NCBI RefSeq assembly: GCF_003334255.1
Contig: NZ_QOWU01000120.1
DNA: 3,480 nucleotides
Strand: one strand, 5' to 3'
Source: Escherichia coli
GTDB lineage: Bacteria; Pseudomonadota; Gammaproteobacteria; Enterobacterales; Enterobacteriaceae
Numbering within the stretch: position 1 is the stretch's first letter; every line of letters starts with the position of its first letter. The position numbers were made by a program, and so were the translations under genes. The notes under the pieces were generated by a model. It was given only the letters and a program-made list of their open reading frames with translations, was not told where the DNA came from and searched no databases. Of the stretch, positions 1 to 3,480 are shown piece after piece.

Positions 1-1783
<1,783 letters not shown>

Positions 1784-2346
1784 CAAGGGCGGAGTAAGTA
1801 ATTATGAGGGGACCCTCAAGCGTAATTTCTCTGGTGGAGAATTAGTAAGTCTACCTCAAGTCATAAATCTTTCAGGTACACTAAGGAATGAGGAGGTTCT
1901 TGATTTGATTTGTTGCTTCAATAAGTTAACTAAAAAACAGGCATGGGCAGAGCTTAATCATAAATGGAATGATAATTTTTTTATTCGCTATGATAAAATA
2001 AGTCGTAAAAGGACTTACACGGTAAGTTATGGGGAGAAGCGTTGGCTTATCATATCTTTGATGCTAACGCTTTGCAAAAATGCCCGTTTATTTTTACTGG
2101 ATGAACCAACTGTAGGCATTGATATTCAGTACAGAATGATGTTATGGGAACTGATAAATAAGATCACCGCAGACGGGAAAACGGTATTTTTCTCAACTCA
2201 TATTTTTGATGAACTAACAAGAGATAAAATCCCCTTCTATATGCTTTCAAAAAATGGTATAAATCGTTATTCTGATATGAGTGATTTTATTCAATCTAAT
2301 AATGAAACAACTCCAGAAAAGGCATTTGTTAAAGAAGTTATGGGAA

Positions 2347-2352
2347 CAGGGG
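2347..2352 (+). promoter_or_regulatory. Shine-Dalgarno-like AGGGGA for the mcbG-like gene
   Basis: AGGGGA lies 8 nt upstream of ATG 2361. The upstream ORF stop (TGA 2355-2357) is 3 nt before the ATG, an arrangement compatible with translational coupling. Confidence 0.5.
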
Positions 2353-2360
2353 ACTGAGAC

Positions 2361-2924
2361 ATGGATATAACAGAAAAAAGAATCACACAACGACACCTCA
2401 ATGAAGGTGAATTATCAGGTGTAAATTATTATAATTGTATATTTGAACGAATACAGCTTGACAATTTTAAGTTTCGCGATTGTGAGTTCGAAAAATGTCG
2501 CTTCGTAAACTGCTCAATAAAGAATTTAAAACTTAACTTTTTTAAACTTATTGACTGTGAATTCAAAGATTGTTTGTTACAAGGAGTTAATGCAGCAGAC
2601 ATTATGTTTCCTTGTACTTTTTCTCTTGTAAGTTGTGATTTGAGATTTGTTGATTTTATTGGTTTAAGGTTACAGAAATCTATTTTTTTATCCAGTCACT
2701 TCCGTGATTGTTTATTTGAGGAAACAGACCTTCGTAAATCTGATTTTACAGGTTCAGCGTTTAATAATACAGAGTTCAGACATTCTGATTTGTCTCACTG
2801 TGATTTTTCAATGACAGAAGGCCTCGATATAAATCCTGAGATAAACAGGATCTTATCTATAAAGATACCACAGGAAGCAGGTTTAAAAATACTTAAACGA
2901 ATGGGAGTGGTTGTAGGGGGATGA
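2361..2924 (+). CDS. mcbG: Pentapeptide-repeat protein, McbG-like (microcin B17 immunity / DNA gyrase protection, Qnr-related fold)
   Basis: 187-aa ORF with ATG start and RBS. It shows a clear 5-residue periodicity with F/L/I at the central position (NCIFE RIQLD NFKFR DCEFE KCRFV NCSIK NLKLN ...) over more than 25 consecutive pentads. The 187-aa length and the position right after an ABC ATPase match what I recall of McbG. Confidence 0.85.
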   Translation: MDITEKRITQRHLNEGELSGVNYYNCIFERIQLDNFKFRDCEFEKCRFVNCSIKNLKLNFFKLIDCEFKDCLLQGVNAADIMFPCTFSLVSCDLRFVDFIGLRLQKSIFLSSHFRDCLFEETDLRKSDFTGSAFNNTEFRHSDLSHCDFSMTEGLDINPEINRILSIKIPQEAGLKILKRMGVVVGG

Positions 2925-2925
2925 G

Positions 2926-3183
2926 GTGAGTAGACCCGCCGGTTACCCGGACGGGCCCTTCCTCAGAACCGGACTTGCTGTCCGCCATCCAACGACAGAG
3001 AGTGCGGCAGTGATGTACAGCCTGATCGGTAGCTGCAAACTTAACGGAATCGAGCCGGAAACGTGGCTACGCCACGTGATCAGTGTAATCAACACCTGGC
3101 CTGCCAACTGCGTGAAAGAGTTGTTGCTCTGTAAGGGGTCGGTTTGGGAAACGGAATTATTGTACGTTAGGAGTATTTTTTAA
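2926..3183 (+). pseudogene. IS66-family transposase (TnpC-like) C-terminal fragment
   Basis: Translation AAVMYSLIGSCKLNGIEPETWLRHVISVI...KELL matches the conserved IS66-family C-terminal motif (MYSLIxTxKLNGxxPxxYLRxVLxRI...ELLP). There is no upstream catalytic domain. GC content jumps immediately after the mcbG stop. No recognisable IS66-type terminal repeat (GTAAGCG.../...CGCTTAC) was found downstream. Confidence 0.55.
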
Positions 3184-3209
3184 CCGATACTGATAAGTAA
3201 CTGCTTGAT

Positions 3210-3279
3210 TTATCGTGATCAGCTATCGCCTTTAAGTTATTGCTTTTCTCTTATCGCATTTAGGTTATCTCATTTCCCT
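3210..3279. repeat. Imperfect tandem direct repeats of about 28 bp (two full copies at 3224-3251 and 3252-3279, plus a partial TTATCG-containing copy at 3210-3223)
   Basis: TATCGCCTTTAAGTTATTGCTTTTCTC compared with TATCGCATTTAGGTTATCTCATTTCCC gives about 21/27 identity, with a 15/17 core, and the copies are directly adjacent. Confidence 0.5.
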
Positions 3280-3344
3280 AAAGGTCTGCCAAAGACCGTA
3301 TAGCGTTGGAGTACACCCAACCGCGATAACGCAACCGTACAATA

Positions 3345-3374
3345 TTGTTCGTTTCCCAAACGCAGCCCTATAAT
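3345..3374 (+). promoter_or_regulatory. Candidate sigma70 promoter: TTGTTC (-35, 3345-3350), 18-bp spacer, TATAAT (-10, 3369-3374)
   Basis: Perfect consensus -10 hexamer with a partial -35 at acceptable spacing. The first downstream ATG is at 3403 and the frame stays open to the window end, but its Shine-Dalgarno spacing is poor. Confidence 0.35.
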
Positions 3375-3480
3375 TCCGGCAAGTGTCATCTGTATTTAAA
3401 GGATGAACCGCCCCGGGTTTCCTGGAGAGTGTTTTATCTGTGAACTCAGGCTGCCAGATCATCGTTTCCGATGGAAGCAT

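Follow-up and report, generated by a model that had tools for sequence, protein, structure and literature searches.

In the stretch of Escherichia coli DNA analysed here (the window, 3,480 nt of contig NZ_QOWU01000120.1) the microcin B17 immunity gene mcbG runs into what is very probably a stack of dead mobile-element fragments (2916–3134), the first layer of which goes back to the ancestor of the E. coli-type microcin B17 operons. Reading outwards from mcbG, a probable tip of a Tn3-family transposon is followed by the 3' end of a group II intron in antisense orientation and then by the truncated tail of an IS66-family transposase gene. All of the pieces are inert; they hold no ribozyme core, reverse transcriptase, transposase catalytic domain or ends. 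The relic as such is made of the ordinary remains of known element types, and the present-day function of the locus is unchanged by these findings.

The window matches E. coli plasmids of the IncK2/Z type. CP060058 is 100% identical to 78–3480 and pECOED (strain ED1a) 99.8% identical to 422–3480; the mcbG product matches an annotated pECOED pentapeptide-repeat protein at 100% identity and McbG of intact operons at about 95% (amino acids). Comparison with the intact operons places the start of homology 156 nt into mcbF. The window thus lacks mcbA–E and the first 156 nt of mcbF, which makes mcbG an orphan immunity gene here. The joint between the IS91-family element and mcbF contains six common bases, ATCAAG, CAAG among them. 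On the minus strand, 231–353 matches the Rfam family isrC (RF01387, an Hfq-binding sRNA family; 150 bits), inside the 5' part of the IS3-family orfA. At the other end of the window, 3165–3369 has 90% matches in a few plasmids, unannotated, and the larger segment 3135–3403 has looser matches (~73%) in many Klebsiella and Salmonella plasmids, all unannotated.

Features of the window (positions count from its first base; handles beginning with L denote comparison loci)
Feature	Position	Strand	Remarks
IS3-family end	78–424	-	
IS91-family element, transposase gene frameshifted	422–1787		ORFs 497–1474 and 1335–1595
mcbF, 3' part	1782–2357	+	truncated by the IS91-family element; homology to intact operons from 1782 (= L005 6422)
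mcbG, microcin B17 immunity, pentapeptide-repeat protein, 187 aa	2361–2924	+	native sequence to about 2915
GGGGGATGA, probable outer 9 bp of a Tn3-family terminal inverted repeat	2916–2924		encodes Gly-Gly and the TGA stop of mcbG
Group II intron 3'-end relic, non-functional	2925–2997	-	homology to intact intron
Domain VI hairpin, GUAA loop	2932–2958 (core 2935–2955, the hairpin of the sequence-only reading)	-	fold and Rfam alignments of L007 and L005
Domain V 3' strand (GCAAGUCCGGUUC), intact	2966–2978	-	identical to L009
Degenerate remains of domain V 5' strand, or filler	2979–2997	-	catalytic triad lost
Chimeric 85-codon ORF (antisense intron, IS66 tail and further DNA)	2926–3183	+	GTG start
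IS66-family tnpC tail, about the last 53 codons minus the final 7	2998–3134	+	97.8% to L008
Plasmid DNA behind the truncated IS66 tail	3135–3403		GC 0.41
IS629-like end	from 3404		RefSeq annotation

A reading made earlier from the sequence alone had the AT-rich mcbG followed directly by an IS66-family transposase tail from 2926. The change in composition that it described is real and sharp: the GC fraction rises from 0.317 (2361–2915) to 0.644 (2925–2997) across the end of mcbG and is 0.526 in 2998–3134. The GTG-started ORF that opens behind the gene exists as well, and its product carries the IS66 C-terminal element (PF13817, residues 32–67, E 8.3e-12). The similarity to IS66, although genuine, is confined to residues 24–67 of that product, the NCBIfam profile NF033517 matching residues 24–53 at profile positions 356–385 of 387. 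IS66 sequence begins only at 2998 and does not include the initial 72 nt of the ORF. From there to 3134 the window is 97.8% identical to positions 4001–4137 of an intact IS66-family element on pO121_51104 (L008); upstream of 2998 and downstream of 3134 the two are unrelated, and RefSeq annotates an incomplete transposase pseudogene starting at 2998. The reading was also right that the window has neither an IS66 terminal repeat nor a catalytic domain. Searching it for the right end of L008 (inverted repeat GTAAGCG...) gave 0 matches at up to 3 mismatches, and of the DDE catalytic domain, tnpA and tnpB none is present, only the last ~46 codons of tnpC. The 85-codon ORF, which opens two bases after the mcbG stop codon, is meaningless and most likely not a gene. 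The annotation can keep an IS66 pseudogene from 2998, and 2925–2997 should be labelled as an opposite-strand group II intron fragment. A separate IS66 transposase-tail pseudogene lies in the E. coli chromosome near iha (L019, 2501–2666), truncated a few bases from the same position; it recurs on the chromosome in about 1500 E. coli genomes. A breakpoint common to the two tails was considered and rejected, the breakpoints being several bases apart and the upstream sequences unrelated.

By homology, the stretch between mcbG and the IS66 tail comes from a group II intron, whose 3' end it forms in antisense to mcbG. Positions 2916–2978 match the 3' end and exon tip of an intact intron (L009, 1912 nt, annotated ltrA in RefSeq) at 59 of 63 bases, with the intron part alone identical at 52 of 54, and 2915–2978 is also matched by plasmids that have no mcbG. 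The identity of the intron came only from such related loci, as Rfam gives no group II match in 2850–3250 of the window itself. In pYJ4-a (L007) the window-like stretch is the end of a group II intron that is nearly complete and lies on the opposite strand; this intron matches the Rfam models RF02005 (group-II-D1D4-6) with 101 bits and RF00029 (Intron_gpII, domains V–VI) with 39.9 bits (E 3e-5), and its two frameshifted ORF halves match the RT/maturase model TIGR04416. The minus strand of a reference-type mcb plasmid (L005) matches RF00029 with 34.4 bits (E 6.5e-5), the end of the model falling on the base after the mcbG stop; both of these domain V/VI scores lie just below the family gathering score of 40. 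A copy in Serratia (L016) has an intact 443-aa RT/maturase ORF that matches TIGR04416 and has no endonuclease domain. At least 80% of the intron is found in 211 E. coli genomes. The full-length Serratia copy (Serratia sp. M24T3, oriented 11191–13101) starts with UUGCG, against the usual GUGCG.

The imperfect hairpin that had been noticed at the junction corresponds to domain VI of this intron, although it lies at 2935–2955 (extended stem 2932–2958) and not at 2931–2951. On the minus strand, 2925–2958 has a stem identical to that of the intact intron, a GUAA loop and the 3' end ...CUACUCACC; the complement of T2931 is the candidate branch-point A. Folded as minus-strand RNA the window hairpin is clearly unusual (-21.1 kcal/mol, z -4.1, matched by none of 200 shuffles); as plus-strand RNA it is only mildly so (-14.1 kcal/mol, z -2.4, matched by 4 of 200). 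Transcripts of mcbG run into this antisense intron sequence with its stable hairpin. An intact domain V, a hairpin of 34 nt that carries the catalytic AGC triad and a bulge of 2 nt, is found in reference-type mcb plasmids and in L007 and is absent from the window; the minus strand of L005 folds into canonical domains V and VI (-46.8 kcal/mol, z -4.7). The segment 2979–2997, which may be decay or filler sequence, aligns to the intron only with 3–4 indels and is common to pSCU-111-2 up to 2993. It forms a local burst of indels and substitutions beside 54 nt that are 52/54 identical to the intact intron. Domains I–IV of the ribozyme core are absent from the window by Rfam, and its ORF list contains no reverse transcriptase/maturase.

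The junction at the mcbG stop had been read as a deletion or recombination scar of this plasmid. The same junction is found in reference operons, a finding that the sequence-only reading had itself named as one that would overturn it: pMRE600-1, p0.1229_2 and pSCU-111-2, all with complete mcbABCDEFG, have the same sequence after mcbG, and their similarity to the window continues to 2978 in the first two (96.7% identical) and to 2993 in pSCU-111-2 (99.3% identical). Among the plasmid-collection records, 129 match E. coli-type mcbG (query with the native part of the gene) and 129 match the mcbG/relic junction (114-nt junction-spanning query, full-length matches). To judge from these records the first junction, present in every E. 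coli-type mcbG examined, is an ordinary old scar and not a recent deletion. It coincides with an element boundary, the 3' end of the intron beside the tip of a Tn3-family repeat, and so looks like nested insertions. Recombination scars specific to this plasmid lineage do exist nearby, at about 2978–2998 and at 3134/3135. The reference-type and window-type mcb lineages differ by 3.3%, and the insertion is older than their split. In two reference-type loci (L003 and L005, 7761–7798) a complete Tn3-family repeat, GGGGTTTGAAGCCCAATGGAGCGGAAACGTACGCTAAG, in turn splits the intron relic; together with another repeat-like sequence near 7979–8015 it may form a miniature Tn3-derived element. We also considered pSCU-111-2 as an ancestral continuation into the IS66 tail and discarded it, as it has an IS3-family insertion at 2993 and the IS66 tail is absent beyond.

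The switch of origin was placed at 2925/2926 by the sequence-only reading; foreign DNA most likely starts at 2916, inside mcbG. E. coli-type McbG ends in ...KRMGVVVGG*. A sister mcb lineage (L010, McbG 72% identical in amino acids) ends in ...KRMGVIIS* followed by AT-rich DNA with no relic, and homology between the two stops at the VVV/VII codons. The nine bases that follow in the window, GGGGGATGA, fit the pattern GGGGNNTGA, like all the tips seen beside the intron; of the 38-bp repeat, with its GGGG start, only these 9 nt are present. They are identical to no tip seen elsewhere, the nearest being GGGGGCTGA in L023, and differ from the commonest tip, GGGGTCTGA, at two positions. The window contains no inner Tn3-family repeat (CGCTCAGTGGAACG...), and its ORF list no Tn3-family transposase or resolvase gene, the downstream DNA being IS66 and other sequence; no mcb plasmid retains the 5' junction of the intron. 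From position and pattern, with no recognisable transposon left, GGGGGATGA is probably a transposon tip, and the last two residues of McbG and its stop codon would probably derive from it. With such an origin, any native terminator was probably lost before the known lineages split, and the microcin B17 operon of the reference plasmids would have a 3' end that is not the original one. A simple scan calls no terminator after mcbG in the window, in a reference-type operon or in the relic-free sister lineage.

The proposal of a transposon tip draws on the behaviour of the intron elsewhere. The 5' flank (CTTAACGTGAGTTTTCGTTCCACTGAGCG) and the 3' flank (TCAGACCCC) of the intact intron in L009 rebuild exactly a 38-bp Tn3 terminal repeat (GGGGTCTGACGCTCAGTGGAACGAAAACTCACGTTAAG), which is found uninterrupted in L017; the split repeat belongs to the Tn2 beside blaTEM-1. 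A further four variants of the Tn3-family repeat are split at the same position, between bases 9 and 10. One is the gamma-delta-like repeat of the Serratia locus (L016), and the remaining three (L021/L025, L023 and L026) came from a metagenome scan with the 5' 20-mer of the intron. At the 3' side, a one-genome-per-species scan with a domain VI 25-mer gave eight loci, in Photorhabdus (three), Aeromonas, Serratia, Erwinia and two metagenome-assembled genomes; in these, as in E. coli and Salmonella plasmids, the intron ends in ...GUCUACUCA(A/C)C and is followed by UCANNCCCC and then by an unrelated flank. Every examined copy that retains the intron 3' end has GGGGNNTGA next, with a diverging flank beyond it. 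The tips seen beside the intron are GGGGTCTGA, GGGGTTTGA, GGGGCTTGA, GGGGGTTGA and GGGGGCTGA.

Because the flanks of the full-length copies rebuild Tn3-family repeats, three other accounts of the conserved flank were dropped, namely that the 9–10 nt after the intron are a 3' exon recognised in homing, that the intron itself reaches ...CCCC, and that the exon was co-converted. The last was suggested by yacA; many IncF plasmids have an intron-bearing copy of Tn2 inserted in yacA, the antitoxin gene of yacA–yacB (L009 3460–3887, L004 1136–1683), and the intact insertion site (…CAGACCG|TTGAACG) resembles a Tn3 repeat tip. In that comparison the resemblance of CAGACCG belongs to the Tn2 insertion flank. 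The metagenome contigs L021/L025, L023 and L026 hold internally deleted derivatives of the intron (1200, 933 and 748 nt) that still sit in repeats. Two further metagenome contigs, L022 and L024, have only the first ~24 nt of the intron in common, beyond which they diverge, and neither has a Tn3-family repeat as its upstream flank. A search for pairing of the intron with its 5' exon gave only weak, non-covarying candidates.

The order of events that we propose begins with a Tn3-family transposon that would have inserted into the last codons of mcbG, its outer 9 bp now serving as Gly-Gly-stop. A group II intron encoding an RT/maturase without an endonuclease domain, of the kind that elsewhere sits between bases 9 and 10 of Tn3-family repeats, would then have entered that repeat on the strand opposite to mcbG. 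By established Tn3 biology an interrupted repeat should not transpose, so that the transposon most likely arrived before the intron. The later events are shown by their products. Most of the intron and the remainder of the transposon are gone, leaving the last ~73 nt of the intron here and about 237 nt, split by another Tn3-family repeat, in the reference-type plasmids. In the window lineage the remnant is joined at 2997/2998 to an IS66-family transposase gene, of which the last 137 nt are kept; the two parts overlap by 2 bases (GA), and the IS66 fragment is truncated again at 3134/3135.

Three other explanations of the region were weighed against this history. That the IS66 tail starts at 2926, with the junction at the mcbG stop a plasmid-specific scar that removed the native terminator, is very improbable. 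The ORF is indeed continuous and carries PF13817, and the window has neither an IS66 repeat nor a catalytic domain; yet the family matches begin only at residue 24–32, intact L008 is unrelated to 2926–2997, the RefSeq pseudogene starts at 2998, and intact operons have the same junction, with mcbG and junction records equal (129/129). It is also possible to do without a transposon altogether, with the intron inserted ectopically into a native end of mcbG that happened to resemble its homing site. Group II introns retrotranspose into look-alike sites, and a native GGGGGATGA would fit such an event, lying as it does two positions from the commonest tip and beside intron sequence that is 52/54 identical. 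We nevertheless regard this as unlikely. The chance of a native 9-mer fitting GGGGNNTGA exactly there is about 6e-5, the sister McbG diverges at precisely this point (S* against GG*), and wherever else the 9-mer is seen it is the tip of a transposon, with unrelated DNA beyond it.

The remaining explanation concerns maintenance and is compatible with an origin by nested insertion: the domain VI hairpin could have been co-opted to form the 3' end of mcb transcripts, as a stabiliser or weak terminator, and kept for that reason. All examined mcb plasmids have the hairpin, with no change in the stem between two lineages that are 3.3% apart. Common descent is enough to explain its presence, however, and the 54 nt around it have 3 substitutions between the lineages (2945, 2959 and 2975), a rate no lower than in mcbG itself. 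The fold is also weaker on the plus strand than on the minus strand (z -2.4 against -4.1), and 2935–2955 is followed by CCCUUCCUCAG and not by a U-tract, the terminator scan calling no site there. Co-option is decidedly improbable.

A more general proposal, which we advance tentatively as a possibility, is that a hitherto undescribed lineage of endonuclease-less group II introns homes specifically between bases 9 and 10 of the terminal inverted repeats of Tn3-family transposons, among them Tn3/Tn2 and gamma-delta-like ones, splitting and presumably disabling the transposon end, and that one old event of this kind fixed the Gly-Gly C-terminus and the stop codon of McbG. Both this choice of target by the intron and the derivation of the McbG stop from a transposon tip may be new; a full-text literature search, with most subscription journals outside its scope and hence weak as evidence of novelty, returned nothing that connects a group II intron with mcbG or with the repeats of Tn3-family transposons.

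Compared with the reference microcin B17 operon (pMRE600-1, p0.1229_2), the window shares mcbF–mcbG at 96.7% identity, the same junction and the first 54 nt downstream of it. It differs in the loss of mcbA–E and the beginning of mcbF, in an intron relic of about 73 nt against about 237 nt, and in domain V, which is intact in the reference and not in the window. IS66-family elements such as L008 consist of tnpA, tnpB, tnpC and terminal repeats. The window fragment corresponds to the end of tnpC with the C-terminal element, whereas ends, tnpA/tnpB and the catalytic domain are missing and the last 7 codons are replaced by unrelated sequence.

The intron lineage at mcbG resembles the group II introns E.c.I4 and E.c.I3 in being a retroelement with an RT/maturase and domains I–VI, in its location on plasmids and islands, in its site specificity for the sequence of another mobile element and in its many fragments. 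E.c.I4 is found in IS3-family transposase genes and E.c.I3 in IS679 (PMC3522654). The target here, in contrast, is a Tn3-family 38-bp terminal repeat, 9 bp from its tip, and not a transposase gene, and the window keeps only about 73 nt of intron with domain V destroyed. The mcbG-adjacent intron was matched to no named intron, and the pECOED fragment is not among the entries of the Enterobacteriales intron survey.

The closest parallel for the choice of target is offered by elements of the IS4321/IS5075 type, mobile elements that likewise target and split the terminal repeat of a transposon, in their case the 38-bp repeats of Tn21/Tn1696-type transposons. IS5075, for example, splits the Tn1696 repeat (PMC5725488). 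If the proposed homing is true, the intron would be a second kind of transposon-end parasite alongside them and could immobilise resistance transposons such as Tn2, in whose repeat, next to blaTEM-1, it is present in many IncF plasmids. The two would differ in kind, since IS4321 and IS5075 are DNA transposons and the intron is a retroelement working through RNA.
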